Translations under genes and position numbers: made by a program
Shown here: one piece after another, positions 14 through 26,822 of the stretch
Numbering within the stretch: the stretch's first letter is position 1
Layout of the letters: the number at the start of each line of letters is the position of its first letter
The notes under the pieces: model-generated
Databases searched by the model: none
Told to the model about the DNA's origin: nothing
The model's input: the letters and a program-made list of their open reading frames with translations, nothing else
NCBI GenBank assembly: GCA_021498095.1
Contig: JAIZWK010000001.1
Span: 2,100,001-2,132,000, forward strand
Source of the DNA: Candidatus Harpocratesius repetitus
GTDB lineage: Archaea; Asgardarchaeota; Lokiarchaeia; Sigyniarchaeales; Promethearchaeaceae
Reading direction: 5' to 3'
DNA length: 32,000 bases

Positions 14-2776
14 ATGAATTTATTTGGAAAGGAACAGCGACAATTTTCAAATCTTACCGTACGTTGGGTTCTCTATTCTAGTTTTGGAGAAGATCCTCAA
101 AAGAAAGTAATCGATTCCATTTGTGATCTTATTTTTGACAAAAGTAGTTCAGTTGAGCGAATTGATTCTGAATTTTGCGGAATTACTGAAATATATCACT
201 TTTTACCCCAATTGAGATGGAAATGCAGTAGTTCTGATAGTGATCAAATAATAAATGTATCAATACCTGGTCATCGGTTGCTGAATATATCTATCGATGA
301 TGATAATATTTTGATTAGTTTTATGCCTCATGGAATTAGGAAAATTACAGGATTTCCAGTTGAGTTTCCAGTTGCATGGGGACAATTTATTTTGGTAGGA
401 ATTACTGAAACAACAGATGGTAAAGAATTGCTTCAATTATTGAAGAAAATATTATATTTGCAAGAATCTGAAAGTGTAGATCATCCCGAGAGCATAGATC
501 AGTCTGCAGGCAAAGATCAACTTAATAAATCCACTTTAAACATTGATAGTTTGAAACCACGTGCTCGCTGTTCCAGTTGTGAAGGAATTTTGTTATTACG
601 ACCACTTCCTCAAAATAAAGATCCCAAAGATCCTATTTCAAATCGAAATTTCATATGTACGGATTGTTTGATGGCTGCGTTGAAGTATTATGAAGAATTA
701 GAAGATCAGATAATCGAACAAGAGCAAAAAGGGAAGATTGAAGGCAATATTGAGACATTGCTTGATATTATTGATGGGGGGATTACATTGGCGCGGAATC
801 TTCAAGATGAACGTCTTATGCACGAATTTTTTATGTTTCGCGCTTTTGTTTTAGTTAAAAGTGATGATCCAGAGATTCTTGAAGAAGCTCAAGATTTGGT
901 TGAAATTGTCTCTGATTTTGCCGAAGCAAATGAATACTCTAAATTGAGTCGAAATGCAACTCAACTGAGAAAAACCATCATTAAGAAGAAGTCAAAATTA
1001 AGTGATTCTAAAATTGAAAAAATAGAAAGTATAGAAACAAAAATTACCGCTGAATCAGGAATAAAAATTGCAGATAACGCAGAGGCAAAAATTACTAATA
1101 AAGTAGATTCAAATATATCCAGTTTAGTGCAGAATGAATTAGCTAAAGAATTAATTGATGAAGTATCTACTAAAAATTCTACCGATTTAGAGTTTGTAAT
1201 GCCTGATGATATAGAACTGGACGAAGATGCAATGGCATTGGGTGAAGCTTTAAATTACGTTCCTAATGAATCAGATCTGACTACAAAAGTTCCATTTATC
1301 GAAACTGAACAACAAACAATTTCTGAAGTTTCAAAAAAATCTACCGCTGCAAAAATTCCCAAAGTCATCAAAAATCTAAAAATTCCTAAAATTCCTAAAG
1401 TCCCTAAAAACTCTAAAGTCCCTAAAAATGAAATGGTAAATAAAATTCTACAAGACTTGCCTCTTAAGAGTATTTCCAAAGCTACTGAAAATTTCCCAAA
1501 ATCAGAAGAAGTTTCATCATCACCTCCAACAATTACTGCATTCAAAAATGAGAGAACATTGATGAATAATGAAAATAATGATTCAAAAATATCAAGTATC
1601 AGTGAGAGAAGCCAAGAAACTGTTGCATATTTTCAAGATGATGAAGAAGACGATGATGAATTTGCGATTCCAAACATACCAAAGCGAAAACCAATACAGA
1701 TTCCAAATTTAAACATTGAAACCACGCTTTCACAAGATGAAACACAATCTTCAGCGACTTTAAGTTCTGCAGAAAGTGTTGCAGATTCTAATTTTCACTC
1801 TTCTGAAGGTATAGAAAATCAATCAAATGTCGAATTTTCTATTAATTCAGAGACTATCCCTTCAAAATCTGAATTAAAGGACAAAAGTTTGGATAAAAAA
1901 CCAGAATTTGATTCTGAAGAAAGAATAGAAAATAATCTAAAAGAAAATGTTGGAGGAATTATTGAAGGAAAGAGAGAAGAGAGTTTTGATAATCTCTTAG
2001 ATAAAAGTTCAGAAAATCTTAATAAATCCAAGAAATTTGAAAATGTGCTATTTTTCGGTGTTCCTAAAGAAGAAGAATCTTCCGAACAAGAAGAAAGTGG
2101 AAAGGAATTATTTCAGTTTTTCAATCTATCCCGAAAATTGAGTACAAAGGATGAAAATGTTCAGAAATCTGGTCGAGAAGAAATTTTTAAACCAAGTTTA
2201 ATAATAAGACGGGGTAAAAAATCCAAGAAAGCAAAGAAAAAAACAGATAAAATGAAAGAGAGAGAAGATCACAGAAATAGAGAAGAAAGAAAAGATAATC
2301 AAGATTTATCAGAAATCTCCAATTTTAATAAGAAAATAGCTGGACCTAGGAAAATTACCGATCTTAAAGAAATTATTAAGACAAAAGATATTTCTAAATC
2401 CATAGATAATTCTAAGCCTCAAGTTATTTCTAAACCTCAAGTTATTTCTAAACCTCAAGTTATTTCTAAGCCTCAAGTTATTTCTAAACCTCAAGTTATT
2501 TCTAAGCCTCAAGTTATTTCTCTGCCTATAGATAAATCATTACATCAAGATACATTAGATTCACAAAAAAATCGATATGAATCGAAATCTGAAAAATTAA
2601 CTATAGAACAAAAAATTCAGAAAAATAAAAATAAACAAAGTGTACAGGGAATTCAATATGTTAAAAAATTTAAAAGACGACATTCTGTAAGGCAAAAGAA
2701 AATAGAATTATGCCCAATGTGTGGAAAGGTCGCTCAAGAATGTACATGTGGTTATATGCAAATGCGAAATCGATAA
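14..2776 (+). CDS. Large hypothetical protein: N-terminal globular region, CxxC..CxxC Zn finger, long low-complexity/disordered region, C-terminal CxxC-x6-CxC knuckle; may be 5'-truncated
   Basis: 920-aa ORF with CSSC...CTDC and terminal CPMCGKVAQECTCG; long E/K/S-rich tract. The frame is open to the window edge (tat gaa cag tta atg), so the true start may lie upstream. Confidence 0.8.
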   Translation: MNLFGKEQRQFSNLTVRWVLYSSFGEDPQKKVIDSICDLIFDKSSSVERIDSEFCGITEIYHFLPQLRWKCSSSDSDQIINVSIPGHRLLNISIDDDNILISFMPHGIRKITGFPVEFPVAWGQFILVGITETTDGKELLQLLKKILYLQESESVDHPESIDQSAGKDQLNKSTLNIDSLKPRARCSSCEGILLLRPLPQNKDPKDPISNRNFICTDCLMAALKYYEELEDQIIEQEQKGKIEGNIETLLDIIDGGITLARNLQDERLMHEFFMFRAFVLVKSDDPEILEEAQDLVEIVSDFAEANEYSKLSRNATQLRKTIIKKKSKLSDSKIEKIESIETKITAESGIKIADNAEAKITNKVDSNISSLVQNELAKELIDEVSTKNSTDLEFVMPDDIELDEDAMALGEALNYVPNESDLTTKVPFIETEQQTISEVSKKSTAAKIPKVIKNLKIPKIPKVPKNSKVPKNEMVNKILQDLPLKSISKATENFPKSEEVSSSPPTITAFKNERTLMNNENNDSKISSISERSQETVAYFQDDEEDDDEFAIPNIPKRKPIQIPNLNIETTLSQDETQSSATLSSAESVADSNFHSSEGIENQSNVEFSINSETIPSKSELKDKSLDKKPEFDSEERIENNLKENVGGIIEGKREESFDNLLDKSSENLNKSKKFENVLFFGVPKEEESSEQEESGKELFQFFNLSRKLSTKDENVQKSGREEIFKPSLIIRRGKKSKKAKKKTDKMKEREDHRNREERKDNQDLSEISNFNKKIAGPRKITDLKEIIKTKDISKSIDNSKPQVISKPQVISKPQVISKPQVISKPQVISKPQVISLPIDKSLHQDTLDSQKNRYESKSEKLTIEQKIQKNKNKQSVQGIQYVKKFKRRHSVRQKKIELCPMCGKVAQECTCGYMQMRNR
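1379..1429 (+). repeat. Imperfect 9-bp in-frame tandem repeat (KIP/KVP/KNS tripeptides)
   Basis: aaaattcct aaaattcct aaagtccct aaaaactct aaagtccct aaaaat, read directly. Confidence 0.7.
2411..2521 (+). repeat. 18-bp in-frame tandem repeat x6 encoding (SKPQVI)6
   Basis: Six contiguous copies of tctaa(g/a)cctcaagttatt at 2411-2518 plus tct; the units differ only at one synonymous position; no spacers. Confidence 0.97.
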
Positions 2777-4333: not shown

Positions 4334-5233
4334 TCACGAAGTCGAGTCTGGCCCTGAGCTTTTTTGAGCTGCCAAGAATTCATCCAAAGTTTCTTTTGGT
4401 GGTCGATGGAAAGCATTCAATAAAATTTGAAAATCATTTTCGATTTGGATTCTATCGAAAGGAAGAACTGAAATATTTATCATACCATCTGATGTTGGTC
4501 CATTTCTTTTTGCTTTATTTCTTTGTTCTATAGGTGAAAGAGATGAAGTATTGTATAATTCAATGGCTTTTACTCTTCCTCGCTGAATGAAAATTCTTGG
4601 AGTATAATTTGCGAAAAAGAAACGTCCTTCTGGAATATTTCCCAATTTAATTCTTTCTTTCACAACTTTTCGTTTTGGTAAAAAAGAGATAAGTGAAGAT
4701 TGGGTACTGTATACTGAAGTATTAATTACTATCATTTCGCGGTCTGATTTATCCAAATCCGGAGGTTGGGGTTGATGATCGAGGAGATCTAAAACTTCTG
4801 AAGGTTTTACTTTGTGAAAAATAATAAGATCTTCTGATTGCAAATGTTCACGCCAAGCAGTATCAATTCGTAATTGAACTCCTGAAGTTTTTTGGAGTAA
4901 TTCTGTTAGTTCATTTATAGAATATAAATCTGGATTGAAAATTTGAGGTACATTTCCAACTGAATCAAGAGTTTTTTCTTTTAAAGTAGACCATATTTCT
5001 TGAGACATCGCTTCAATTTGATATAAGGTTGCCATATGGCTTTTAATTTCTTTAGCAAGATGATCAACTAAAAACCGATAGACAAGACCTGCCTCTGAGC
5101 CTAAAAATGTATATATGACATGATTAGAATCATCAGTGATAATATATGCTTTTTTAGGATTAATTTGACTTCCTAATGTATCTCCATGAATTTCACGTGT
5201 TTCGACAGAAGTAAGTGCTTCAAATAATTGCAA
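4334..5233 (-). CDS. Gelsolin-like protein: one gelsolin domain plus a C-terminal Asgard 'X'-type domain (1DGelX-like)
   Basis: N-terminal AYIITDDSNHVIYTFLGSEAGLVYRFLVDHLAKEIK matches the gelsolin-repeat pattern (hhhD..hhhWhG.......h..A..h). The C-terminal REMIVI..VYS..LGNIPEGRFFFANYTPRIFIQRGRVKAIEL resembles, from recall, the X domain of Asgard gelsolins. GAGGAG lies 9 nt upstream of the TTG start. Confidence 0.65.
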   Translation of the reverse strand: MQLFEALTSVETREIHGDTLGSQINPKKAYIITDDSNHVIYTFLGSEAGLVYRFLVDHLAKEIKSHMATLYQIEAMSQEIWSTLKEKTLDSVGNVPQIFNPDLYSINELTELLQKTSGVQLRIDTAWREHLQSEDLIIFHKVKPSEVLDLLDHQPQPPDLDKSDREMIVINTSVYSTQSSLISFLPKRKVVKERIKLGNIPEGRFFFANYTPRIFIQRGRVKAIELYNTSSLSPIEQRNKAKRNGPTSDGMINISVLPFDRIQIENDFQILLNAFHRPPKETLDEFLAAQKSSGPDSTS

Positions 5234-5330: not shown

Positions 5331-5930
5331 GTGTTAATGAAATTATGTGCTTCGGCTTCGCATGGAATTTATTTTAATTGTACTCAATGCGGAAAATGTT
5401 GCTCTAGCGATTCCGAAGGATATATTTTTGTTTTTTGGAACGATATAAAGCGTATTTCAACTTTTTTAAAGTTAAGTTATGAAGAATTTGCACAAAAATA
5501 TTTGAATATAGTAGAATTTGAATTCACTTTATGGGATACAAATTTAGAAAATACACATATTCAGAAATCCATGGATACTCTTGTACTAAATTTTAGTCTG
5601 GATCAAAATTGTATATTTTTAATATCCATTGATGAAATATGGGGTTGTCAAATTTATCAAGCTAGGCCTAAACAATGTGAATTATATCCTTTTTGGTCAA
5701 TGATTATGATTTCTGAACGAAATTTTATTAATCATCAAAGAATATGTCCAGGATTTCGCATTAAAGGTGAAGAGAAGGATTATTATAATCCAAATCAAAT
5801 TGAAAAGCTAGTAAAAATTGAGCGAAAAATTGAACGTGATTATTATTTAAAAATGAAAGAAGTCAATTTTGATATTTTTCAGATGTATCCGTTTTTGAAA
5901 AATGTTCGCAAATTTAGAATTAATAAATAA
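5331..5930 (+). CDS. YkgJ/UPF0153 family cysteine-cluster (putative Fe-S/Zn) protein
   Basis: FNCTQCGKCC, CIFL, CQIYQARPKQCELYPFW and ICPG motifs. Confidence 0.88.
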   Translation: MLMKLCASASHGIYFNCTQCGKCCSSDSEGYIFVFWNDIKRISTFLKLSYEEFAQKYLNIVEFEFTLWDTNLENTHIQKSMDTLVLNFSLDQNCIFLISIDEIWGCQIYQARPKQCELYPFWSMIMISERNFINHQRICPGFRIKGEEKDYYNPNQIEKLVKIERKIERDYYLKMKEVNFDIFQMYPFLKNVRKFRINK

Positions 5931-5964
5931 TTTTAAAAAATTTGACAAGCTAACTTTACGTACT

Positions 5965-8430
5965 ATGACTTATGCAAATAAGATTCTTCGCATCAACTTG
6001 GAAACGCAAGAAATACGCGAAGAACCTTTGGATTTTGAAATTGTGCAGAAATATTTAGGTGGTCGTGGGCTCGGAGTAAAAATTTTGTATGATGAACTCC
6101 AACCGAAAATTGATCCATTATCTTCTGCAAATAAAATTGCAGTAATGACCGGCCCGATGACTGGAACAATTTCTCCTACCTCATCTCGTTGGTGTATGGT
6201 GTTTAAAAGCCCTTTAACCAAAAATACATTAAATGATACTCACTGCGGTGGTTCTCTTGGAATTCAATTAAAAAAAGCAGGATTTGATGGAATTATTATT
6301 GAAGGTAAGTCTCCAAATCCATGCTATATTCATATTCAAGATTCTAAAGTAGAAATTTTAGATGCCTCTGATTTATGGGGTAAAGATACATATGAAACGC
6401 AGCAAAAATTAAAAGAAAAACATGAACGTCATTCTGTCGCTTCAATTGGACCTGCTGGAGAAAATTTAGTGAAATTTGCATGTATTTTGAACGATGCTCG
6501 ATATGCAGGTAGAGGCGGGATAGGTGCAGTATGGGGATCAAAGAACCTTAAAGCAATTGCAGTAAAAGGATCAAATCGAATTGTTCCTGCGAATGAATAT
6601 GCTTTTAAGAAGGTTACTCGTAAATTTCTTAATATTCTTAAAGGACACCCTATTACAGGAACAGGATTGGGATTATATGGAACACCTATTTTAACCACTG
6701 CGGTTAACAAGTCAGGTGTTCTTCCTGTAAAGAATTTTCAAGAAGGTATTTTTGACAATGTTCGAGCTATTGCAGGAGAGACTTTAAGAGAACTTTTGGT
6801 TAAGCAAGTACCTTGCCAAGGATGCCCTATTGGTTGTGGGCGTTCATTGAAATTTGAAGATAATACCACTCATTTAGAATATGAATCGTTATGGGCTTTG
6901 GGTCCAAATTGCAATATTAGCGATTTGAAGATTATTTTTGAAGCCAGTGAAAAATGTAATCGTTATGGATTAGATACTATTTCTACAGGAAATGCAATTG
7001 CTTGGTATATGGAATGTGCTGAACGAGGTTTGGTTTCAGACGCTCCTAAATTTGGGGATGGTGATGGACTATTAAAACTTATTGATGATATTGCCACCCA
7101 GACTAATTCAGGACAATTATTGGCTCAAGGAGTAAAGAATGCTGCAGAAAAAATTGGTCAAGGTTCTTCTGATTTCGCATGCCATGTAAAAGGATTAGAA
7201 ATGCCTGCATATGATCCTCGGGGAATCAAAGGGATGGCATTAAGTTATGCAACTTCAAACACTGGTGCAACTCATTTAAAAGCTTATACGGTTATTCAAG
7301 AAATACTCAGTACTCCACATTATGTCGATCCTTTAGCAGAAGAGGGGAAAGCAGAATTAGTTAAAGAAATGCAAGATGTTTATGCTACGTTAGACTCTGC
7401 AGAATGGTGTAAATTTACTTCAATGGCTGTTTTCTCAACATTAAAATGTGAAGTTGATATTTATGCCCAATTACTTACAACCGCCACAGGCTTTTTCATT
7501 GATTCTGCAGAATTTAAGAAAATTGGTGAACGAATATACAATTTAGAGCGATTATTCAATTACCGAGAAGGTCTATCTCGGGTAGATGATGAATTACCTA
7601 AACGATTTTTAACAGAAAAATTGCCTGCAGGACCTGCTAAGGGACAAGTTGTGGATAATTCTGCATTATTGACTCAATTTTACCGTCTTCGAGGCTGGGA
7701 AGATGATGGAAGTCCATCTGATCGTAAATTAGAAGAATTGGGTATTAAACCATTGCACACATCTGCAAAGCTTCAAGTTGCATTAGATTTACGAGATATG
7801 GATGAAGCAATTAAAATTGCCAAGAGTGCAGTTGCTGGTGGTGTTGATTGGTTAGAATGTGGTACACCCTTAGTAAAATCAGTTGGAATGGACATCGTTC
7901 GAAAACTACGGGAATTATTCCCACATAAGACCATTGTATGCGATTTAAAAACCATGGATACTGGCTTTTTAGAATCAGAAATGGCACATTTAGCAGGAGC
8001 TGATATTGTTTGTATTTTAGGAATTGCACCTGATACTACAATTGTTGATGCTGTTGGTGCTGGAAAGAAATTTGGAATTAAGATCCATGCTGATTTAATT
8101 GGTGTATCTAATCCAATCGAACGAGCAATCGAACTTGAAAAACTCGGTGTAGATTACATTGGTTTACATATCGGAATCGATACTCAATTAAGATCAGGTT
8201 TCGATAAAGTACCCTATCCTACATTAAAGAAGTTGAAAGAATCGATCAAAATTCCTGTGGCAGTCGCTGGAGGATTAAATGCTGAAACAATTCCAAAAGC
8301 TGTAGCAACAGGTGCTGATATTCTTATTGTAGGTGGTGCAATTACTCGGTCTGCCAACCCTGAACAAGCTACCCGCCGATTAAAAGAAAAAATCCGAGAA
8401 GCATCGCTTCAGAATGCAAAAAATACATGA
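5965..8430 (+). CDS. aor-hps: Fusion: tungsten/molybdenum aldehyde:ferredoxin oxidoreductase (AOR family) + C-terminal 3-hexulose-6-phosphate synthase (HPS, OMPDC-like barrel)
   Basis: AOR part: KILRINL, YLGGRGLG, AGRGGIGAVWGSKNLKAIAV, CQGCPIGC (6814-6837) plus WCKF, EYESLWALG, YGLDTISTG, HVKGLEMPAYDPRG, GERIYNLERLFN. HPS part from about 7765: LQVALD, ECGTPL, DLKTMDTG, HIGIDTQ, VAVAGG, IVGGAIT. ATG 5965 (MTYANKILRINL) fits a typical AOR N-terminus better than the ORF-track start at 5902. Confidence 0.93.
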   Translation: MTYANKILRINLETQEIREEPLDFEIVQKYLGGRGLGVKILYDELQPKIDPLSSANKIAVMTGPMTGTISPTSSRWCMVFKSPLTKNTLNDTHCGGSLGIQLKKAGFDGIIIEGKSPNPCYIHIQDSKVEILDASDLWGKDTYETQQKLKEKHERHSVASIGPAGENLVKFACILNDARYAGRGGIGAVWGSKNLKAIAVKGSNRIVPANEYAFKKVTRKFLNILKGHPITGTGLGLYGTPILTTAVNKSGVLPVKNFQEGIFDNVRAIAGETLRELLVKQVPCQGCPIGCGRSLKFEDNTTHLEYESLWALGPNCNISDLKIIFEASEKCNRYGLDTISTGNAIAWYMECAERGLVSDAPKFGDGDGLLKLIDDIATQTNSGQLLAQGVKNAAEKIGQGSSDFACHVKGLEMPAYDPRGIKGMALSYATSNTGATHLKAYTVIQEILSTPHYVDPLAEEGKAELVKEMQDVYATLDSAEWCKFTSMAVFSTLKCEVDIYAQLLTTATGFFIDSAEFKKIGERIYNLERLFNYREGLSRVDDELPKRFLTEKLPAGPAKGQVVDNSALLTQFYRLRGWEDDGSPSDRKLEELGIKPLHTSAKLQVALDLRDMDEAIKIAKSAVAGGVDWLECGTPLVKSVGMDIVRKLRELFPHKTIVCDLKTMDTGFLESEMAHLAGADIVCILGIAPDTTIVDAVGAGKKFGIKIHADLIGVSNPIERAIELEKLGVDYIGLHIGIDTQLRSGFDKVPYPTLKKLKESIKIPVAVAGGLNAETIPKAVATGADILIVGGAITRSANPEQATRRLKEKIREASLQNAKNT

Positions 8431-8481: not shown

Positions 8482-8775
8482 GTGAGAAAATTGATTAAAA
8501 TCATCCTTACTTTTTTTGCTAATTTACAACCACTTTTTGGTGAAGAACAGGTAATCTATGTAGAATATCCAATAAGAATTATTGAGATCTTTCTATTATT
8601 CAAGACTAAGGAAGGAATTAGGGCAGATAATGTGTTTTTAGATGGAAATATTTCATTAAAAGAAGATTTCAACATTCTTCTAAATGGAAGGCATATTCTT
8701 GCTTTTAATGGGCTTAAAACAATTATAAATGAAGATTGTGAAATATCCTTTTTCCCAAAAATAGGTGGGGGATAA
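8482..8775 (+). CDS. moaD: MoaD/ThiS/SAMP ubiquitin-like sulfur carrier
   Basis: 97 aa; ILLNGR..., ends ISFFPKIGGG (C-terminal Gly-Gly); directly downstream of a pterin-dependent enzyme. Confidence 0.85.
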   Translation: MRKLIKIILTFFANLQPLFGEEQVIYVEYPIRIIEIFLLFKTKEGIRADNVFLDGNISLKEDFNILLNGRHILAFNGLKTIINEDCEISFFPKIGGG

Positions 8776-8920: not shown

Positions 8921-11900
8921 TTAAGCCTTTGATTTCTTCGATTTTTTTGTTAAATTGCTCGATTTACTTTTTTTAATTGATTTTATACTTCTTTTTGATG
9001 ATTTTCGTTTATTATTCAATGCTTTTTTGTTTGTTTGATTTTTTTCATCAGTTGTATTTGGTAATGCTGTTCGATTTTTGTGATAACTTATGAAATTTCG
9101 CTTATGATCATTTGCTAACACTGGTTTAAGATATTTTCCTGTATAAGATTTTGGATAAGCTGCTATTTCTTCCGGAGTTCCTGATATAACAACTTCTCCT
9201 CCATTATCTCCACCTTCAGGTCCCATGTCGATAATATAATCAGCAGATTTGATAACATCCATATTATGTTCAATAATAATTACTGTATTTCCATGATCCA
9301 CCAGTTTTTGAATCACTTTCAACAATTGAAGTGTGTCATGAAAATGTAATCCTGTAGTAAATTCATCTATAAAATAAAGAGTATTTCCTGTACTACGTTT
9401 GCTTAATTCGCGGGAGAGTTTAACCCGTTGTGCTTCACCGCCTGATAATGTGGTGGATGATTGACCGAGCTTGATATAGCCTAAACCAACATCTATAACT
9501 GTTTGTAGAATATTCCGAATTTTAGGAAAGTTTTCAAAGAAATCAAACGCTTCTTCATGAGACATCTCTAAAATATCTGCAATACTTTTTCCTTTAAATC
9601 TAACTTCTAAAGTTTCTGCATTGTAGCGCGTACCTTTACAGACATCACATCGAATGTACACCGGCGGTAAGAATTGCATTTCAATAAGATTGAATCCCGA
9701 TCCTTTGCATTTTTCGCAACGACCTTGTTTAACATTAAAACTAAATCGTCCTCGATCATATCCTCTAAGTTTTGCTTCTTTTGTTGCGCCAAAAATATCA
9801 CGAATATAATCAAACACTTTTGTATAAGTTGCAGGAACAGATCGTGGAGTTCTTCCTATAGGTGTTTGGTCTATATGAATAATTTTATCAATAAGTTCTG
9901 CACCTTCAATTTTTTCGAATTCACCTGCAATTAGATGAGATTCAGGATTTTTCATTCTTTTCAAGCCTTTATATAGGGTTTCCATAACGAGTGATGATTT
10001 TCCAGCACCACTCACTCCAGTCACGACTGTAAGGACTCCTAATGGTATTTTTACGGTAATATTTTTTAAATTATTTGAACGTGCTTTATGTATAGTAATC
10101 CATTGGCTAATATTGTTTCTCCTGAGGCCAGGAGTTGGAATAAATTTTGTTCCTTGCAAATATTGAGCCGTTAATGAGGTGGGATGATTTAATATCTGTT
10201 CTAAAGTTCCTGCAACTACAATTTCACCGCCATGGATTCCAGCTCCTGGGCCTAAATCTACAATAAAATCAGATGAGCGAATTATATCTTCATCATGCTC
10301 AACAACCAGAATAGAATTACCTTTATCACGTAGAGCTTTTAACATATTGATTAGTTTAAATTTGTCTCTGGGATGAAGACCAATTGAAGGCTCATCCAAT
10401 ACATACAGTACACCTACTAAATTTGATCCAATTTGAGTGGCTAAACGAACCCTCTCTGATTCTCCTCCTGATAGTGTACTGCTACTCCTATTCATTGTGA
10501 TATAATGCAATCCCACATTAAGTAAAAAGGTATATCTACTAATTAATTCTTTAAACACATCACGGACAATTTCCATCTCGCGTTTAGATGTATTTTTTTT
10601 AACTTGCTGAAGAAATTGAAGTGCACTATCTACCGTTAAGGCGGAAACTTCTGCAATATTTTTTCCCATGATGGTTACAGCTAAAGCTTCTGGTCTTAAA
10701 CGTTGTCCATGACATACCCGACAGATCCTTTCGTCCATCCATTTTTCATAAAATTCACGGCTGGATTCAGAATTAGTTTGATGATATCTCCGTTCTAATG
10801 TATTCAAAATTCCCTCAAAAGGACGACTAACTGCGTACGAAAATTCACGATCGTTTCCATTTTCATCAATCTTACTTGTTTCGATCCGAAAATCAATAAA
10901 CTGAGTTCCTGAACCATATAGCAAAACATTCCATACATGTTCAGGAAGTTGGTTGATAGGAAGATTCAGATCAGAATCGAAAAATTCGGCAACATTTTCA
11001 ATCATTCGCCATGTATAAGAATCTCGTTTTCCAAAACCTCCAATTCTTCGTAAATTACTTTCATAAATTGATTTCGATTTATCTGGAAATAATCTTTCTT
11101 CAGTGAATACTTTAGATATTCCTAAACCATTACAAGCCGGACAAAGTCCAAGAGGTGTGTTAAAAGAGAAGAGTTGGGGACGTAGTTCAGGGATAGATAA
11201 TTGATCATTAGGACAAAACAAGTGTTCAGAATAAATTTTTTCTTCACCATTAACAATAGAGATTTTAACTAAACCCTCTGTTAGTCGGGAAGCTTGTTCA
11301 ACTGCATCTGCCAATCTTTTATGAAAATCGTCTGTATTTTTCAAAATAAGTCGATCAATAACCACATCAATATCATGAAATTTATTTTTATCTAAGATTA
11401 TTTCTTCATCTAATTCATATTCTAAATCGTCCACAATTACTCTTACAAATCCTTCTTTTTTCAATTGTTTAAAAACTGCTGAATACTCTCCTTTTCTTCG
11501 TTGAACAATCGGAGCTAATACTCTAAATTTGGTTTTTGGTTCCAGATTTTTCATAATATTCTCTGTAATTTCTTGAGTGGTAAGCGGTGTTATTTCATTA
11601 CCGCATTTAGGACAATGAGGAATTCCTATATTGGCATATAATAATCGTAAATAATCATAGATTTCAGTAACAGTTCCTACAGTACTACGGGGATTTTTAC
11701 TAACTGCCCTTTGCTCAATTGCAATTGATGGACTTAATCCTTCAATATAATCAAGATCTGGTTTATCCATAACACCCAAAAATTGTCGAGCATAAGTATT
11801 AAGAGACTCTAAATAACGGCGCTGACCTTCTGCATAAATGGTATCAATTGCCAGCGAAGATTTACCTGATCCACTTAAACCGGTAAATACAACCAACTTA

Positions 11901-11977
11901 TTTCTGGGAATGGTAATATCAATATTTTTAAGATTATTCTGACGGGCTCCTTTTAAAATAATAAATTCTTGGTTCAT
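8921..11977 (-). CDS. uvrA: Excinuclease ABC subunit A
   Basis: GARQNNLKNI, GLSGSGKSS and GVSGAGKSS Walker A motifs, two LSGGE signatures, Zn fingers, LYVLDEPSIGLHP. Confidence 0.98.
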   Translation of the reverse strand: MNQEFIILKGARQNNLKNIDITIPRNKLVVFTGLSGSGKSSLAIDTIYAEGQRRYLESLNTYARQFLGVMDKPDLDYIEGLSPSIAIEQRAVSKNPRSTVGTVTEIYDYLRLLYANIGIPHCPKCGNEITPLTTQEITENIMKNLEPKTKFRVLAPIVQRRKGEYSAVFKQLKKEGFVRVIVDDLEYELDEEIILDKNKFHDIDVVIDRLILKNTDDFHKRLADAVEQASRLTEGLVKISIVNGEEKIYSEHLFCPNDQLSIPELRPQLFSFNTPLGLCPACNGLGISKVFTEERLFPDKSKSIYESNLRRIGGFGKRDSYTWRMIENVAEFFDSDLNLPINQLPEHVWNVLLYGSGTQFIDFRIETSKIDENGNDREFSYAVSRPFEGILNTLERRYHQTNSESSREFYEKWMDERICRVCHGQRLRPEALAVTIMGKNIAEVSALTVDSALQFLQQVKKNTSKREMEIVRDVFKELISRYTFLLNVGLHYITMNRSSSTLSGGESERVRLATQIGSNLVGVLYVLDEPSIGLHPRDKFKLINMLKALRDKGNSILVVEHDEDIIRSSDFIVDLGPGAGIHGGEIVVAGTLEQILNHPTSLTAQYLQGTKFIPTPGLRRNNISQWITIHKARSNNLKNITVKIPLGVLTVVTGVSGAGKSSLVMETLYKGLKRMKNPESHLIAGEFEKIEGAELIDKIIHIDQTPIGRTPRSVPATYTKVFDYIRDIFGATKEAKLRGYDRGRFSFNVKQGRCEKCKGSGFNLIEMQFLPPVYIRCDVCKGTRYNAETLEVRFKGKSIADILEMSHEEAFDFFENFPKIRNILQTVIDVGLGYIKLGQSSTTLSGGEAQRVKLSRELSKRSTGNTLYFIDEFTTGLHFHDTLQLLKVIQKLVDHGNTVIIIEHNMDVIKSADYIIDMGPEGGDNGGEVVISGTPEEIAAYPKSYTGKYLKPVLANDHKRNFISYHKNRTALPNTTDEKNQTNKKALNNKRKSSKRSIKSIKKSKSSNLTKKSKKSKA

Positions 11978-12070: not shown

Positions 12071-14290
12071 TTAATTAGTTTTCTTTTTTTTTGATTTCTG
12101 AGATCGTTTCATTTGATGTAATACTTTTTTCTTGACTTCACGTTTAGCAATATGTTCTACAGTTCCCAGTAGTTGAAATCCAGGAAAAGATTCGCTCTCT
12201 TCTTCTTCACTATAATCTTCATCCCCTGAATAATTTTGAATAAGATTGGGAGATATTTGTTCTAATTTCTGCGCTATTCTTCTATTTATTTCTGAGGTTT
12301 GAATTTTATTGGTTTTTATTTCTCGAATAATATCACGTAAAATAGCTGCTAATTCAAACTCGAGATCTTTTGCAGCTTTGAGCATCGATCTTTCAAGTTC
12401 TTGTAAAATAATTTCTTCAGATGCATTTTCTTCTAAAGTTTTGTGTAGTATTTCAGAAAATAATTTCTTCGATTGTTTTTGTTTTCCATCTTCATGAGTA
12501 TCTGCAAGAGCGTCTTGAACGCGTTTTTGAATAGTTTGAGGTGTTATTCCATGTTTTTTATTATAAGCAATTTGTTTTTTGCGACGTCGATTGGTTTCTT
12601 GAATTGCGTTTTCAATAGATTTTGTCCGTTTATTGGCATAAATAATTGCTCTCCCTTCTGCGTTTCTAGATGCTCGACCGATTGTTTGTATTAAAGAACG
12701 AGTGTCTCGTAAAAATCCTTCTTTATCTCCATCCAAAATTGCTACTAATCCGACTTCTGGTAAATCTAATCCTTCACGTAAAAGATTTATTCCTACAACT
12801 ACATCAAAAACTCCTGATCTAAGTTTCCTAATTAATTCCATCCGTTCAACAGTATCAATATCAGAATGAAGATATTCAATTTTAATTCCAACATCTTGAT
12901 AATAATCTGCAATATTCTCTGCCATTCTTTTCGTCAAGGTTGTTATCAAAACTCGATGATTTTTTTTTATTTCTAAGCGAATTTCTGCTAGAAGATCATC
13001 TATTTGATTATCAACAGGTCTAATTTCAACTAATGGGTCAACTAATCCTGTTGGACGAATAACTTGGTCAACCCAAACATTTCCACTCTTTTCTAATTCA
13101 TATGGTCCAGGTGTTGCACTAGTACATATTACATAACTTAGTTTTTTTTCCCATTCTTCAAACTTTAATGGGCGATTATCCAATGCACTTGGAAGACGAA
13201 ACCCATAATCAACTAAAGCTTGTTTTCTTGCTTGATCACCTTTGATCATTCCTCTAATTTGGGGGATTGCAATATGAGATTCATCTATTATGAGAAGAAA
13301 ATCTTCTGGAAAATAATCATATAAACAAGCTGGCTGTTCTCCTGGTTTTCGCCTATCCAAAAATCTGGAATAATTTTCAATTCCTTTGCAATATCCGACT
13401 TCTCTAAGCATTTCAATATCATAACGGGTCCGCTCTTCAATTCTCTGAGCTTCTGCCCATTTATTTTGCTTTTTAAAATAGGCAATACGTTCTTCTAATT
13501 CTTCCTCAATTTCTTTTGTCATTTGGTCCATTATTTCTTCGGCAGTAACATATTCACGTGTGGGAAAAATCTTTAAATTTGAGACTTCATGCAATTTTTT
13601 ATTTGTAATTGGATCCATTTCCGTAATTGATTCAATTTCATCCCCAAAAAAGCTCACTCTGTAAAAATTATCCAAGTATCCTGGAAAAATATCTACAGTA
13701 TCGCCTCGTATGCGAATTTTTCCTTGCGTAAAATCAATATCATTTCGTTCAAAATGAATTGAAATTAATTTAAGCATCAAATTATTGCGGGTTATTTGCA
13801 TTCCCTTTTCAATAACAAATGATTTCCTTGCCCATTCATTAGGATTCCCGATTCCATATATACTCGAGACTGAAGCGATTACAATTACATCTTGACGAGT
13901 TAAAAGTGCATGAGTAGAAGCTAACCTATATTTCATTATTTCTTCATTTACACTGCTATCTTTTTCTATGTATTTTCCTGATGAAGGTAAATATGCTTCA
14001 GGTTGGTAATAATCAAAATAAGAAATATAATAATTTACTGAGTTTTCAGGAAAGAATTCTTTAAATTCTTGGTAAAGTTGAGCAGCAAGTAATTTATTTG
14101 GAGCAGTAACCAATGTGGGTAAATTAAGATGCGAAATAACCTGTGCCATAGTATATGTTTTACCAGTTCCTGTCGCACCTAATAGTGTTTGAAATCGTTT
14201 TCCTTTTCGGATTCCATCAAGCAATTCCTTTATTGCTTGAGGTTGATCACCTTTGGGAGTATAATCCGACACTAATTTAAATTTAACCAT
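12071..14290 (-). CDS. uvrB: Excinuclease ABC subunit B
   Basis: PKGDQPQAI, GATGTGKT, YFDYYQPEAY beta-hairpin, DESH, GINLLREGLDLPEV, QTIGRASRN, C-terminal UVR coil (LEFELAAILRD). Confidence 0.98.
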   Translation of the reverse strand: MVKFKLVSDYTPKGDQPQAIKELLDGIRKGKRFQTLLGATGTGKTYTMAQVISHLNLPTLVTAPNKLLAAQLYQEFKEFFPENSVNYYISYFDYYQPEAYLPSSGKYIEKDSSVNEEIMKYRLASTHALLTRQDVIVIASVSSIYGIGNPNEWARKSFVIEKGMQITRNNLMLKLISIHFERNDIDFTQGKIRIRGDTVDIFPGYLDNFYRVSFFGDEIESITEMDPITNKKLHEVSNLKIFPTREYVTAEEIMDQMTKEIEEELEERIAYFKKQNKWAEAQRIEERTRYDIEMLREVGYCKGIENYSRFLDRRKPGEQPACLYDYFPEDFLLIIDESHIAIPQIRGMIKGDQARKQALVDYGFRLPSALDNRPLKFEEWEKKLSYVICTSATPGPYELEKSGNVWVDQVIRPTGLVDPLVEIRPVDNQIDDLLAEIRLEIKKNHRVLITTLTKRMAENIADYYQDVGIKIEYLHSDIDTVERMELIRKLRSGVFDVVVGINLLREGLDLPEVGLVAILDGDKEGFLRDTRSLIQTIGRASRNAEGRAIIYANKRTKSIENAIQETNRRRKKQIAYNKKHGITPQTIQKRVQDALADTHEDGKQKQSKKLFSEILHKTLEENASEEIILQELERSMLKAAKDLEFELAAILRDIIREIKTNKIQTSEINRRIAQKLEQISPNLIQNYSGDEDYSEEEESESFPGFQLLGTVEHIAKREVKKKVLHQMKRSQKSKKKKTN

Positions 14291-15444: not shown

Positions 15445-16788
15445 ATGCCATTGGGGATAGTCCTTATTACAGTTAATTGTGATCAAAACTTAAAAAAATG
15501 GAAAAGTGAAATAATTAATTCTTATCCTGCAGATTTTATGCCATCTCGTGCATTGGTTCACAAAATTATCGATATTATCCATAATTCTACTGATAGATTT
15601 AACTGTGAATCTGAAGAAACTTTAGAATTAAAATACCGAGATAAAATAATTCTTGTTCAAAAAATAATTGTGCGCCCAAATGAAAAAGAAGAACTATTTG
15701 TGGTAATTTTACAACCAAAAGAGGCATTAAACGTTCAAAAATATTATAATATTCTCGTTTCTATCTTTCCTCATAGTGATTCTCAACCAATTTCTGAATA
15801 TCCTAATCAATTTACTGAATATGCCAAACAATTCTTCCCCAAATCATACCGTCGGAAAGTATTATTTATCGGTCTTCGCTCTGCTGGAAAAACATGCATT
15901 AAAAAGAGTTTTTTTGATGGAGTTGCTCCTTCAAAACTATTAGGAGAATATTCCCCTGAACCAACTGTTGGACTCGCTCACTTTGTTTATTCTTGGTTAG
16001 ATGCAGAAATCGGAATTATTGATTCATCCGGACAAGAATTTGATCGATATGTTTCTCCTGCAAATGATTTCGAACGAAAAATTGCATTTGAAGAAGCAGA
16101 TGTAATTCTTTACATTTTTGATATCACTCATTGGCAAGAAGATAAAAATAAAGTATTAAAAAATTTGGAAAAAGTAATTTCAACAAAAAAAATATTTGCT
16201 GGAAAAGGAAAAATTTATGCATTTTGTCATAAAATCGATCTGTTAAAGGGTTCTAATGAAGATAAATCTAAATACTTCCTTCAAATCAAGCAGCAAATTG
16301 AGCAGAAATATCACATTAAAACCATTTTTACATCAATTCAGCCTGATTTGATTCATACATTATTCCGTTCCATGCAGATTATTTTAAATGAACTTTCTAT
16401 TATCGGAGGAACGCTGGAAGCTTTTTGCGATGATATTCTAAAAGATCAAGAAACTAGTGCTGTATTGCTTTTTAACGAATCAAATGCAGTTATTAGTCAA
16501 AAAAGTACTCCTGATTTAGAAGTATATAATTTTACTAATATTAGTGCTTTGGTTAAAAATCAAAGAAAATTACTATCAAATTCTCCAGAATTGGGGGATT
16601 TGGATTATTCAATTATATATACTCTTTCAGGGTTCGCCTTAGTAATAAAATCTATCCGATTGATTAAATATGGTGTATCAACTCTTGCGTTCCTAAGTAG
16701 AAACATCAATAAAGAGTCTCTTTCTCAGATTATAACCAAATTAGACCAGCGTTTATCCTTTGAAATTCAAAAAGAGAAATATTTATGA
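15445..16788 (+). CDS. Rag/Gtr-type small GTPase with an N-terminal longin-like domain and a C-terminal roadblock-like domain
   Basis: G1 GLRSAGKT, switch I PTVG, G3 DSSGQ, and Rag-type G4 HKID and G5 TSI. By eye, the C-terminal segment follows the roadblock pattern and the N-terminal ~135 aa follow the longin pattern. Confidence 0.85.
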   Translation: MPLGIVLITVNCDQNLKKWKSEIINSYPADFMPSRALVHKIIDIIHNSTDRFNCESEETLELKYRDKIILVQKIIVRPNEKEELFVVILQPKEALNVQKYYNILVSIFPHSDSQPISEYPNQFTEYAKQFFPKSYRRKVLFIGLRSAGKTCIKKSFFDGVAPSKLLGEYSPEPTVGLAHFVYSWLDAEIGIIDSSGQEFDRYVSPANDFERKIAFEEADVILYIFDITHWQEDKNKVLKNLEKVISTKKIFAGKGKIYAFCHKIDLLKGSNEDKSKYFLQIKQQIEQKYHIKTIFTSIQPDLIHTLFRSMQIILNELSIIGGTLEAFCDDILKDQETSAVLLFNESNAVISQKSTPDLEVYNFTNISALVKNQRKLLSNSPELGDLDYSIIYTLSGFALVIKSIRLIKYGVSTLAFLSRNINKESLSQIITKLDQRLSFEIQKEKYL

Positions 16789-19575: not shown

Positions 19576-21747
19576 TTACATTGAAAATTGAGCTTCAGAT
19601 GCTGTAGCTTCTTCATCTGTCGGTTCAATGGTATAACGAACTTCTACTTCACCATCAGCGGGAATTTCTTCGATCATCCAAATTAATACTTCTCTACCAT
19701 CGAGTTTTTCAGTTTCAGTTGGTTCAATACTTGGATCCTTAACGTCAAATTTTGCTGGGACACGATCACGTAATTCATAATTTTCAACAGCAAATTCTCC
19801 TCTATTTCGGACTTTCAAGACAATCTCATATACATTTTCTGTTCCAGTTGCCAAAACTGATTTTCCACGGAAGATTTTAAGACGTCGGTGAATAACTTCA
19901 ATTTTAACTTCTTCACCTTCTTCTGTAATAACAATTGGTTCACCTCTTGGTAGAGTATTTGCTTTCCAAGTAATAGGTGAAACAAAAGATTCTTCAGGAC
20001 TTAATTGATCGGCAATTATTGGGAAAATAACTTGTAATTCTTGATTTGGTTCAAACATTCCCATTTCTGTATCTTTCAATCCATCCATTTCAATAAACAA
20101 TCTTCGATCTTCTATTTTAATCCAATCAGGATCTAAATCATATTCTTTACCATCCACAGTCAATTTAATTTCTTCTTTTTCAGGCATCTTGAAATGTTCA
20201 GGAACAGTTTGTTCAATCGAAAGATAGTCAAATGGTGTTGCACCGCCGTTGGTTAAGGAGTGTGTGGCTGTAAATGGAACCTCCCTGTATGATTCAATTG
20301 TTTCAATATCATATGAAACTTCAGCATTGAATATGGCTACGGCTAATTCGATATCTTCTATTTGTACAGTTGTTGAAGTAATTGCCTTCAAATCATGAAG
20401 AAGAATGAATTGGGCTGTTTTTTGGTATTTTGGAATTTCACCTTTTGTATCAATCTCCCATGTATTTGACTGCCAGATTCCACCAGCAGATAGGAAAATT
20501 TCGCTATCTTCAGATAATTCAATTAATTCTGGTGCATTGTCCTTCTCCATTTCTTTAACGCTTACTTTCTTTAGTTTTGCTATATATGGACTGAGATTTT
20601 CATACTCTAAAAATCCTATGAATATATCCGGCCGATCTTCTATCTGTTCTTCTGTGGTTGATACCATGTTTTCTCCAGTCGCTTCAAAATTCTCTACTGT
20701 TAACTCTGATAAGGAAGTTGCTGCATCATATTCAATCTCCACCATTCCAGAGCGTACCTTTTCTTCTTTATCAGCAATATGCACTGTCAATGTAAATTCT
20801 AAAGATGCATGAGCATTCGATTCAAGTTTCTCGATTTCCCAAATTAAATGATTATCTTCAGTTCGATGTTCTCCGATAGAAACACTTTTGATATCGACAT
20901 TACTGGCTCCATCAAACAATTCTTTCTTTACCACAATATTCTCAATAGGATATTCTTCTGTATTAGTAAGTTCTAGGTTGAAGTAAACTTCGTTATCTTG
21001 ATCCATATTCAAAGAATATGTAATAGTATTAGGATCATTAATAGTTGAGATATTTTCTTTCAATTTGAGAGAGGGCTCTTTATCTGCTTTGATTTTATAC
21101 TCAATTGGATACTCTTCTTCACCATTCAATTCTTGAATTGAAAATTCTTCATCCAGATTTTCGATGGCTCCATTATGTTTGAATTGACCCGTAATATCCC
21201 AAATTCGTTGATCACTTGCAATATTTTTAAATATAATCTGACCATCACGAGTTAATATTCCATAACCCTCACTAGGTTCTTTGGATTTTTTTTCTTCTTC
21301 CCCATCTTCTGTTTCTTCTTCCCCTGTTTCATCTGTACTCTCTTTTTCATCTGAAAGAAAATTATATTCATATTTTGCAATTATTTTTTCTTGAACATTT
21401 ATTGCAATTCGTTCGCCTTCAACCTCTTCTTCTGAGCTTCCGACTCTTTTTCCTTGTGATGTTTTTGAATTTGTATCTTTTGATTCATATGTTTTTGTAG
21501 GTTCCCCTTTTTTTGCTTCTTCTTGTACTCTTGCAAAATAAGATTCTAACTCGTCTTGATCTTTAGTTTTCTCTTCACGACCAGAATTAATTGCTGATTT
21601 AACTGTTGATTTTGCTCGATCGGATAACATATTTCCTAAAATCTTAAATCGTTCGAAAAATTCATCTGCCGAAATGTTTATGTTGCATTTTATCTTCTTT
21701 TTATTTATTTCGACAGTTCCGTATTTATCTAGATTGTAATTTGGCAT
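19576..21747 (-). CDS. Acidic protein with about five tandem Ig-like beta-sandwich (DUF11/CARDB-like) repeats; no visible signal peptide or TM helix
   Basis: 723 aa, very E/D-rich; recurrent h.h.N....h..h.h...hP ... hW.I..L/I....h.h motif, e.g. LELTNTEEYPIENIVVKKEL..LIWEIEKL and LKVRNRGEFAVENYELRDRVP..LIWMIEEIPADGEVEVRYTI. Confidence 0.6.
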   Translation of the reverse strand: MPNYNLDKYGTVEINKKKIKCNINISADEFFERFKILGNMLSDRAKSTVKSAINSGREEKTKDQDELESYFARVQEEAKKGEPTKTYESKDTNSKTSQGKRVGSSEEEVEGERIAINVQEKIIAKYEYNFLSDEKESTDETGEEETEDGEEEKKSKEPSEGYGILTRDGQIIFKNIASDQRIWDITGQFKHNGAIENLDEEFSIQELNGEEEYPIEYKIKADKEPSLKLKENISTINDPNTITYSLNMDQDNEVYFNLELTNTEEYPIENIVVKKELFDGASNVDIKSVSIGEHRTEDNHLIWEIEKLESNAHASLEFTLTVHIADKEEKVRSGMVEIEYDAATSLSELTVENFEATGENMVSTTEEQIEDRPDIFIGFLEYENLSPYIAKLKKVSVKEMEKDNAPELIELSEDSEIFLSAGGIWQSNTWEIDTKGEIPKYQKTAQFILLHDLKAITSTTVQIEDIELAVAIFNAEVSYDIETIESYREVPFTATHSLTNGGATPFDYLSIEQTVPEHFKMPEKEEIKLTVDGKEYDLDPDWIKIEDRRLFIEMDGLKDTEMGMFEPNQELQVIFPIIADQLSPEESFVSPITWKANTLPRGEPIVITEEGEEVKIEVIHRRLKIFRGKSVLATGTENVYEIVLKVRNRGEFAVENYELRDRVPAKFDVKDPSIEPTETEKLDGREVLIWMIEEIPADGEVEVRYTIEPTDEEATASEAQFSM

Positions 21748-26218: not shown

Positions 26219-26228
26219 TAAATAAAAT

Positions 26229-26240
26229 AAGATATATCTT
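26229..26240. promoter_or_regulatory. Candidate operator palindrome upstream of copA
   Basis: Perfect 12-bp AAGATATATCTT 10 nt upstream of the copA ATG; related AAATATATTT at 26321-26330. Confidence 0.3.
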
Positions 26241-26342
26241 TTTGAAATATATTCTCATTATTAAATATAAAGAAAAGGTCTTATTTGAATTTGGAAAAAG
26301 TAAATATGTATATTTTTTGAAAATATATTTGCATTAAGCTTA

Positions 26343-26822
26343 TTGGAGAAATCAGCTATATATTATTTAATGTCAATAAATGAAAAATCCCTTTTATCTG
26401 ACTTTACTCGTTTTTATTTACTTGTTTTATTATATGAAAATCCAAATCACGGATATGGATTGCGGGTAAAATTTGAAGAAAGATTGGGCAAAAACATTAG
26501 TTTTTCTTTAATATACCCTTTTCTAAGCAAGTTGGAAGCAAAAGGATATGTTTCTATTGAGAGAAAATTAATCGGTCATAAAGAAAAAAAAATATATCAT
26601 TTGACAGAAGCAGGAAAAAAATTCGCTGAGAATATGTTTCAGCGATTTTCAGGAATAATTGACACTGCAATTGAGTCTAATATCCAAATTTGTGCTGGAT
26701 GTGGAATAAAACTATATCAAAACTCTTATCAAGAAATCATTAATGGAAAAAAATATTCATTTTGTTGTCGACATTGTGCTGCTGCTTTTAAAAATAATGA
26801 GGTACATAAACACAACCATTAA
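26343..26822 (+). CDS. PadR-family winged-helix regulator with a C-terminal TRASH/YHS metal-binding domain; start probably ATG 26370
   Basis: HGYGL..., LIYPFLSKLEAKGYV, KKIYHLTEAGK; C-terminal CAGCG...YSFCCRHC and an HKHNH tail; divergent from copA. Confidence 0.88.
   Translation: MEKSAIYYLMSINEKSLLSDFTRFYLLVLLYENPNHGYGLRVKFEERLGKNISFSLIYPFLSKLEAKGYVSIERKLIGHKEKKIYHLTEAGKKFAENMFQRFSGIIDTAIESNIQICAGCGIKLYQNSYQEIINGKKYSFCCRHCAAAFKNNEVHKHNH

Follow-up and report, generated by a model that had tools for sequence, protein, structure and literature searches.

We have analyzed a 32,000 nucleotide stretch (the window) of the genome of Candidatus Harpocratesius repetitus, an Asgard archaeon of the Promethearchaeaceae (contig JAIZWK010000001.1, positions 2,100,001 to 2,132,000). 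One gene in this window encodes a single protein whose N-terminal part is an oxidoreductase of the AOR (aldehyde oxidoreductase) family and whose C-terminal part is a hexulose-6-phosphate synthase (HPS). AOR is a new and widespread fusion partner for HPS that is apparently uncharacterised. Many archaea make pentoses by running the ribulose monophosphate (RuMP) pathway in reverse, with the release of one formaldehyde per pentose. The AOR-HPS fusion probably belongs to such a reverse RuMP route of pentose synthesis, in which the formaldehyde released by the HPS part would be oxidised on the same chain to formate, with reduction of ferredoxin.

An oxidoreductase and a synthase in one reading frame

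The gene occupies a single open frame (5902..8430, plus strand) without internal stop in the ORF list of the window. We placed its start at the ATG at 5965 ('MTYANKILRINL'), since all homologues in the alignment begin at the equivalent of this sequence (start consensus 'MxYxGKILRVNL'); the product is thus 821 aa long (Table 1). Three Pfam profiles, AFOR_N, AFOR_C and OMPdecase, are each matched end to end, the last at residues 602-805 (E = 6e-35). The preliminary description of this DNA had reported a full-length AOR-family enzyme in frame with a complete HPS, and one 821-aa protein with these three matches is what we find. The two parts meet at the sequence ...RKLEELGI, KPLHTSA, KLQVALD..., where the DNA is free of any stop, start codon or homopolymer run. 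A linker lacking stop and Met had been placed at about 7741-7785; it lies close to this position, at K595-A601 (7747-7767).

The AOR half aligns over its full length with the AOR of Pyrococcus furiosus, with 525 bits to that structure (1AOR) against 370 bits to the FOR of the same species (1B25), and with Foldseek identities of 45% and 36%, respectively. It belongs to the AOR family and on these scores is AOR-type rather than FOR-type. The cluster cysteines C284, C287, C291 and C482 match Cys288, 291, 295 and 494 of 1AOR and are invariant in 24 to 27 homologues; the CxxCxxxC motif and distal Cys noticed previously are invariant in all of the 24 single-barrel fusions. Also aligned with 1AOR and invariant are E307 and H437, the equivalents of Glu313 and His448, and the pterin-motif aspartates D337 and D477. 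We take Glu313 and His448 of 1AOR to be active site residues and its Asp motifs to bind the pterin. The AOR half is predicted to hold a tungsten or molybdenum bis-pterin cofactor and to oxidise aldehydes. A feature absent from 1AOR is an insertion after the fourth cluster cysteine, of about 6 residues followed by 'LLTTATG', which all of the 29 fused AOR domains have and where 38 of 51 stand-alone AORs show a gap.

The C-terminal half scores above the cutoff of the NCBIfam HPS equivalog TIGR03128 (HxlA), with 211.2 bits against 200 (215.3 bits in the genome search). Among solved structures, its closest relative is the HPS-PHI fusion 9LJ9 (219 bits, 51% identity), and it matches HPS 3AJX with 141 bits. 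Residues D608, E631, D660, K662, D665 and H735 are invariant across the single-barrel fusions, and the last five align with E33, D62, K64, D67 and H136 of KGPDC, so that the catalytic set of the OMPDC suprafamily (Mg-binding Glu and Asp, DxKxxD, catalytic His) is complete. The motifs DxKxxD and HxGxDxQ had been described as intact, and both are (D660/K662/D665 and H735 to Q741, invariant in the same 24 proteins). The positions that distinguish KGPDC from HPS (112, 139 and 169) are occupied by D710, I738 and A768 and so follow the pattern of HPS, namely Asp, a hydrophobic residue and Ala. The E112D/R139V/T169A mutant of KGPDC also outscores the wild type, with 84 against 78 bits (the identity of the entries was checked by their PDB titles). 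A KGPDC identity was rejected, since the half reaches 101.8 bits against a cutoff of 250 with NF009831 and 78.7 against 294 with NF009832, and carries D, I and A instead of Glu112, Arg139 and Thr169. The NCBIfam models of OMPDC likewise score far under cutoff. Thus, to the question of whether the barrel is HPS or KGPDC/OMPDC, model scores, structures, specificity residues and the tree described below all answer that it groups with HPS. The barrel would interconvert ribulose-5-phosphate plus formaldehyde and hexulose-6-phosphate. Judged from their residues, both halves look complete and catalytically competent.

A full-length AlphaFold2 model has a pLDDT of 90.2 and a pTM of 0.89, and its halves superpose on 1AOR and 3AJX with a TM of 0.94 each. 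The structure search returned no solved chain that spans both halves; the best TM by query length was 0.70. A two-chain prediction of an interface between the AOR and HPS alignments gave a score of 0.00, which counts neither way.

Table 1. Features of the AOR-HPS gene and its downstream neighbour (window coordinates)
Feature	Position	Strand	Basis
AOR-HPS fusion gene, complete (821 aa + stop, P0001)	5965..8430	+	ORF, homologue alignment, domains
AFOR_N, residues 5-202	5977..6570	+	Pfam PF02730, E = 5e-82; model vs 1AOR TM 0.94
AFOR_C domains 2 and 3, residues 217-594, ending at conserved KLEELGI	6613..7746	+	Pfam PF01314, E = 3e-131; end-to-end alignment with 1AOR
4Fe-4S motif C284-x2-C287-x3-C291	6814..6837	+	Alignment to 1AOR; fourth ligand C482 at 7408-7410
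Clade-specific insertion after C482, residues 487-496; F490/T492/E496 invariant	7423..7452	+	Alignment of AOR domains
Linker KPLHTSA, 7 residues (K595-A601), between AOR C-terminus and HPS strand beta-1	7747..7767	+	Sequence
HPS (beta/alpha)8 barrel, residues 602-821	7768..8427	+	TIGR03128, 9LJ9, 3AJX; model TM 0.94 to 3AJX
HPS catalytic motif D660-x-K662-x-x-D665	7942..7959	+	Invariant in 24 single-barrel fusions
ThiS/MoaD-like small protein, GGG end, adjoining the fusion	8482..8775	+	Pfam PF02597

Distribution and descent of the fused gene

A word-indexed search recovered more than 110 protein clusters, 806-859 aa in length, with the same three domains. Their source labels comprise Promethearchaeota, Hodarchaeales, Heimdallarchaeota, Thorarchaeota, Methanomethylicaceae, Nezhaarchaeales, Thermoplasmata and Thermoprotei. 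When 27 diverse members were aligned, the linker between the conserved end of the AOR part and the HPS sequence 'KLQVALD' was always 7-8 residues long, a length kept by all homologues of about 815-840 aa. That two neighbouring genes have been joined artificially, by assembly, a frameshift or gene calling, is extremely improbable. The one point in favour of an artefact is that a junction-spanning contig was obtained solely from the sample of the probable source itself: a 193-nt contig (X2) covers 7638-7830 and is identical, and it comes from that same sample and so is not independent. Among the other sets of Logan contigs, X1 gave almost no coverage, and the pieces from X3 and X4 were short and in part unlike the window. 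The independent evidence is the conservation of the junction across phyla, and on this point the relatives are clear, since the same in-frame junction recurs in more than 100 independent homologous clusters from several phyla and many studies. The genome, moreover, is a single closed contig of 4.36 Mb, which also speaks against the joining of separate genes. The only apparent split relative, a 234-aa 'stand-alone' HPS placed inside the fused clade (P0281), was rejected as such, as its locus contains an intact 850-aa frame within which the start had been miscalled.

The history of the two halves was followed in separate trees. For the AOR part we used 30 fused domains, 46 stand-alone representatives and the five other AORs of the genome; 29 of the fused domains fall into a single clade (SH-aLRT 95) that contains none of the stand-alone AORs. 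HMMER scores agree with this separation. When the AOR half by itself was searched exhaustively against 1.84 billion representatives, the top two matches are fused (643 and 635 bits), and the best stand-alone AOR follows at 540 bits, a gap of about 95 bits below the fused pair. In the HPS tree the fused domains fall together (support 84), and their sister group consists of fusions of HPS with an RraA-like domain. Three sub-clades are shared by the two trees: an Asgard group, a Thermoproteota group, and a third group made up of a Thermoplasmata-labelled protein, its relatives and the double-barrel forms described below. This agreement of the AOR and HPS trees points to a single main fusion event, after which the halves would have evolved together.

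Some divergent architectures stand beside the main form. The AOR domain of an 826-aa AOR-OMPdecase fusion (P0169) falls outside the main fused clade and groups with a 562-aa AOR (P0147) that was treated as stand-alone in the tree; P0169 may have arisen by a second, separate fusion or belong to a rapidly evolving branch. In proteins of about 990-1004 aa (P0035-P0043; locus L022:4569-7544), the AOR part is followed by two tandem HPS-like barrels, of which the middle one retains DxKxxD and the terminal one lacks the third Asp (DLKTL[A/R/C]xG). Enzymes of the OMPDC suprafamily supply this third Asp across the dimer interface. Judged by its motifs, the double-barrel variant resembles a pseudo-dimer fused into a single chain, in which one active site is complete. 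Double barrels of the type HPS-HPS also occur with no AOR domain and no AOR gene nearby (P0274 and P0276, 393-395 aa; L026 and L027, 5001-6188), and in the HPS tree their halves cluster with the two barrels (middle and terminal) of the ~990-aa variants.

Within the phylum, which we sampled with 151 genomes and in which an AOR-fused HPS was scored as an open frame of at least 800 aa, the fusion is present only in the genus of the window (3 genomes), in family f21 (4 of 7 genomes) and in family f24 (1 of 1). Fae was detected in 103 of the 151 genomes and in none of the three fusion-carrying lineages, and the sister genus, of the same family, carries Fae-HPS in place of AOR-HPS. Counted by family, 10 of 25 are without Fae, as are all three fusion lineages. 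Since so many families lack Fae anyway, the latter figure is suggestive without being conclusive. Fae is also missing from the genomes from outside the phylum that belong to the Heimdall group, to Methanomethylicia or to the carriers of double barrels. In many Asgard genomes, Fae domains were observed in frames of about 490-530 aa (for example G012:C1:1166309-1166782), often two in tandem in family f7; by their architecture these frames are Fae fusions other than Fae-HPS.

Pathway context and proposed function

The closed genome encodes no detectable Fae (PF08714), either in the fusion protein or elsewhere, and neither transketolase nor transaldolase was found in it. As there is no transketolase/transaldolase pentose-phosphate route, the genome needs the cleavage direction of RuMP to make pentoses. 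Three of its genes belong to the OMPdecase family, namely that of the fusion, a pyrF of type 2 and an HPS-like paralogue of 225 aa (G000:C1 about 2033918-2034595; L003:1405-2082, minus strand). The paralogue was rejected as a canonical HPS because D608 is replaced by Asn, the equivalent of position 139 is Arg and the phosphate loop is disrupted, and the fusion is thus the only canonical HPS of the genome. The Arg139 of the paralogue is KGPDC-like, and similar HPS-like paralogues of about 228 aa were seen in the Fae-less family f5. No protein of the genome exceeds the cutoff of 160 for 6-phospho-3-hexuloisomerase (PHI, TIGR03127); the best match, at 80 bits, is a 396-aa protein composed of two PHI-like SIS halves in tandem (G000:C1:1227777-1228964; L010:799-1986). 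Homologues of this tandem protein are encoded next to AOR-HPS in one Heimdall and four f21 genomes, and next to a stand-alone HPS in two further genomes. It is a candidate for the isomerase of the pathway and for a new, duplicated form of PHI. Of the genes that the preliminary description had named as relevant elsewhere in the genome, fae, transketolase and transaldolase are therefore without match, and a PHI-like isomerase is present. RpiA (219 bits) and formate-tetrahydrofolate ligase (Fhs, 836 bits) are also encoded. As for a formate dehydrogenase that could serve as formate sink, the match to FdhA is weak (109 bits against a cutoff of 666). Five further AORs are all stand-alone. The genome is without any other formaldehyde sink of the known kinds.

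From the domains and the gene content we infer the activities of both halves, the direction of flux, the bound metal and any physical channelling as follows. The separate tandem PHI-like isomerase would convert fructose-6-phosphate to D-arabino-3-hexulose-6-phosphate, which the C-terminal HPS barrel would cleave to ribulose-5-phosphate and formaldehyde; RpiA would then supply ribose-5-phosphate from ribulose-5-phosphate. The N-terminal AOR module, with its tungsto- or molybdo-pterin and 4Fe-4S cluster, lies 7 residues away on the same chain and would oxidise the formaldehyde to formate, reducing ferredoxin. The formate could enter the C1 pool via formate-tetrahydrofolate ligase or be exported. 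The fusion would in this way be a counterpart of Fae in Fae-HPS that is independent of tetrahydromethanopterin (H4MPT) and that recovers two low-potential electrons. That Asgard archaea use reverse RuMP is accepted (PMC10307638, PMC8027215). The route has been stated to have provided early Asgard archaea with reducing power (PMC10307638), and the fusion fits this statement because the AOR step would give reduced ferredoxin. The passage of RuMP formaldehyde through AOR to formate and Fhs was proposed earlier from separate genes in Culexarchaeia (PMC9723716). The pathway logic has thus been proposed before, and the covalent fusion is the new part.

Several observations weigh against this proposal. 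Because the AOR half is nearer to the broad-specificity AOR than to FOR, formaldehyde is only a plausible, undemonstrated substrate. The fusion and Fae do not replace each other strictly, as one Nezhaarchaeales genome carries both and many Fae-less Asgard families have an unfused HPS. The PHI candidate, at 80 bits against 160, lies far under its cutoff, so that the completeness of the pathway relies on synteny. Two genes of the RuBisCO family are present in the genome, and pentose metabolism may therefore have additional routes. The pTM of the structural model is its self-reported confidence, and no biochemical, transcript or structural work on any member of the fusion was found in the literature. 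The broad specificity of the nearest AOR would also suit a different role, in which the fusion serves co-expression or stability only and the AOR half functions as a general aldehyde oxidoreductase (acting, for example, on aldehydes derived from amino acids), or has some other substrate, and does not work on the formaldehyde from HPS. The organism belongs to a class of amino acid fermenters (PMC7015854, PMC8027215), which favours such a role. We nevertheless regard it as unlikely, because the fused AORs form a dedicated clade, because the AOR and HPS trees show the same sub-clades, as expected of co-evolved halves, and because the linker is fixed at 7-8 residues across phyla. This clade has its own insertion and signature residues and is distinct from the five stand-alone AORs of the genome. 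The occurrence of the fusion where Fae is missing argues in the same direction, and neutral fusions of unrelated enzymes would seldom be expected to last across phyla.

The same protein could in principle work backwards. AOR-family enzymes act as reversible acid reductases and HPS is reversible too, so it is chemically possible that reduced ferredoxin drives formate to formaldehyde and that HPS condenses the latter with ribulose-5-phosphate to hexulose-6-phosphate. The fusion would hold the steady state of formaldehyde low, as the uphill reduction of formate requires, and the formate metabolism (Fhs) and the five other AORs of the genome also favour this direction. Nevertheless, ferredoxin-driven formate reduction is thermodynamically uphill, and ribulose-5-phosphate cannot be regenerated without transketolase and transaldolase, so that an assimilatory RuMP cycle would be blocked. 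Pentose synthesis in a genome with no pentose-phosphate pathway demands cleavage, and the two RuBisCO-family genes, as an alternative route of pentose breakdown, likewise count against the formate-reducing direction. We consider it improbable that this is the main direction; it is just as doubtful that the fusion acts as a ferredoxin-driven formate-to-sugar module, with formaldehyde kept in the protein, under reducing, formate-rich (syntrophic) conditions. Oxidation of the formaldehyde released during pentose synthesis remains the reading that we prefer, in support of the main interpretation of the preliminary description.

ThiS/MoaD-like genes are the usual accessory beside AOR genes, and the gene directly downstream of the fusion is of this kind (Table 1). 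Its homologue adjoins the fusion in the Heimdall, Nezhaarchaeales and Methanomethylicia loci, and the identity to the Heimdall copy is 47%. The product is probably an accessory for maturation of the pterin cofactor. An upstream CxxCxxCC protein (5331-5930, PF03692) was rejected as a conserved electron partner, as it is absent from the same three groups of loci.

Apart from these, the fusion is surrounded in the window by unrelated housekeeping genes. UvrA (8921-11977, minus strand) ends in a C-terminal extension, about 70 residues long and rich in Lys, Ser and Asn, and is adjoined by UvrB (12071-14290). Two eukaryote-like signature proteins are encoded: a 447-aa Gtr1/RagA-type GTPase (15445-16788, plus strand) and a 723-aa protein combining an adaptor-complex medium-subunit (mu-homology) domain with DUF11 (19576-21747, minus strand). 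A copper-type P-type ATPase with two HMA domains (23624-26822) is divergent to a PadR regulator that has a C-terminal TRASH/YHS metal-binding domain. ORFs of 920 aa (14-2776, plus strand) and 299 aa (4334-5233, minus strand) have no Pfam match.

Comparison with known systems and significance

Three other partners of HPS are known. Fae-HPS (NF009833), found in methanogens and other archaea that use H4MPT, likewise couples HPS to a formaldehyde-handling enzyme in reverse RuMP synthesis of pentoses, and within the phylum sample its distribution is complementary to that of AOR-HPS. Both partners are N-terminal, but they have unrelated folds: Fae is a protein of about 160 aa, whereas the AOR part is a pterin and Fe-S oxidoreductase of about 595 aa. 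The fate of formaldehyde differs as well, being condensation with H4MPT in Fae-HPS and, as we propose, oxidation to formate with ferredoxin in AOR-HPS. The Fae-HPS model matched the HPS half alone, with 153.7 bits against a cutoff of 274. HPS-PHI (NF041755) of the Thermococcales is the fusion that has been solved as 9LJ9, and its model matched only positions 4-213 of 391 (215 bits against a cutoff of 500). In the absence of the pentose-phosphate pathway, HPS-PHI serves to make pentoses (PMC12628685), a role that AOR-HPS would share. Unlike HPS-PHI, however, AOR-HPS has no SIS/PHI domain; an oxidoreductase is attached instead, and the isomerase is separate. The third partner is the RraA-like domain of proteins annotated as 'bifunctional hexulose-6-phosphate synthase/ribonuclease regulator' (NF005442), whose HPS domains are sister to those fused to AOR and which occur in related Promethearchaeota (P0114-P0121). 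In these the partner is C-terminal and carries no redox module, whereas that of AOR-HPS is N-terminal and redox-active in type. Since PHI, Fae and RraA-like partners all exist, AOR is at least the fourth, and not, as had been claimed, a third solution.

Among oxidoreductases, P. furiosus AOR is similar to the fusion end to end, with conserved cofactor ligands and active site Glu and His, and the ThiS/MoaD-like neighbour recalls the aor-moaD-type arrangement of P. furiosus. The fusion differs from 1AOR in its C-terminal HPS barrel, in the insertion after the fourth cluster cysteine and in belonging to a clade separate from the stand-alone AORs. P. furiosus FOR is of the same family and fold and has a name that fits the proposed chemistry; its similarity is nevertheless lower, and the fused domain lies outside the FOR clade. 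The AOR-HPS fusion itself was not described in any paper found by full-text literature searches, in agreement with the earlier remark that this architecture is not known from a characterised enzyme. Public annotation of the fused proteins is inconsistent, naming them 'HPS', 'AOR' or 'OMP decarboxylase', and metabolic reconstructions are therefore likely to miss one of the two halves.

What becomes of formaldehyde in archaea that lack H4MPT and Fae has so far been guesswork, an example being the AOR suggested in PMC9723716. Strong genomic support for a link between AOR and formaldehyde comes from the conserved covalent fusion of HPS with AORs of a dedicated clade, and this fusion spans Asgard archaea (the Promethearchaeota lineage of the window, Hodarchaeales and Heimdall groups), Methanomethylicia, Nezhaarchaeales and Thermoplasmata. 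A single protein now offers a direct test of the idea. A chain that keeps formaldehyde between two sites, one for redox chemistry and one for formation of a C-C bond, would be relevant to synthetic C1 assimilation. Should the formate-to-sugar reading prove true, the fusion would offer such work a ready-made enzyme and would be evidence of an intramolecular formaldehyde tunnel.

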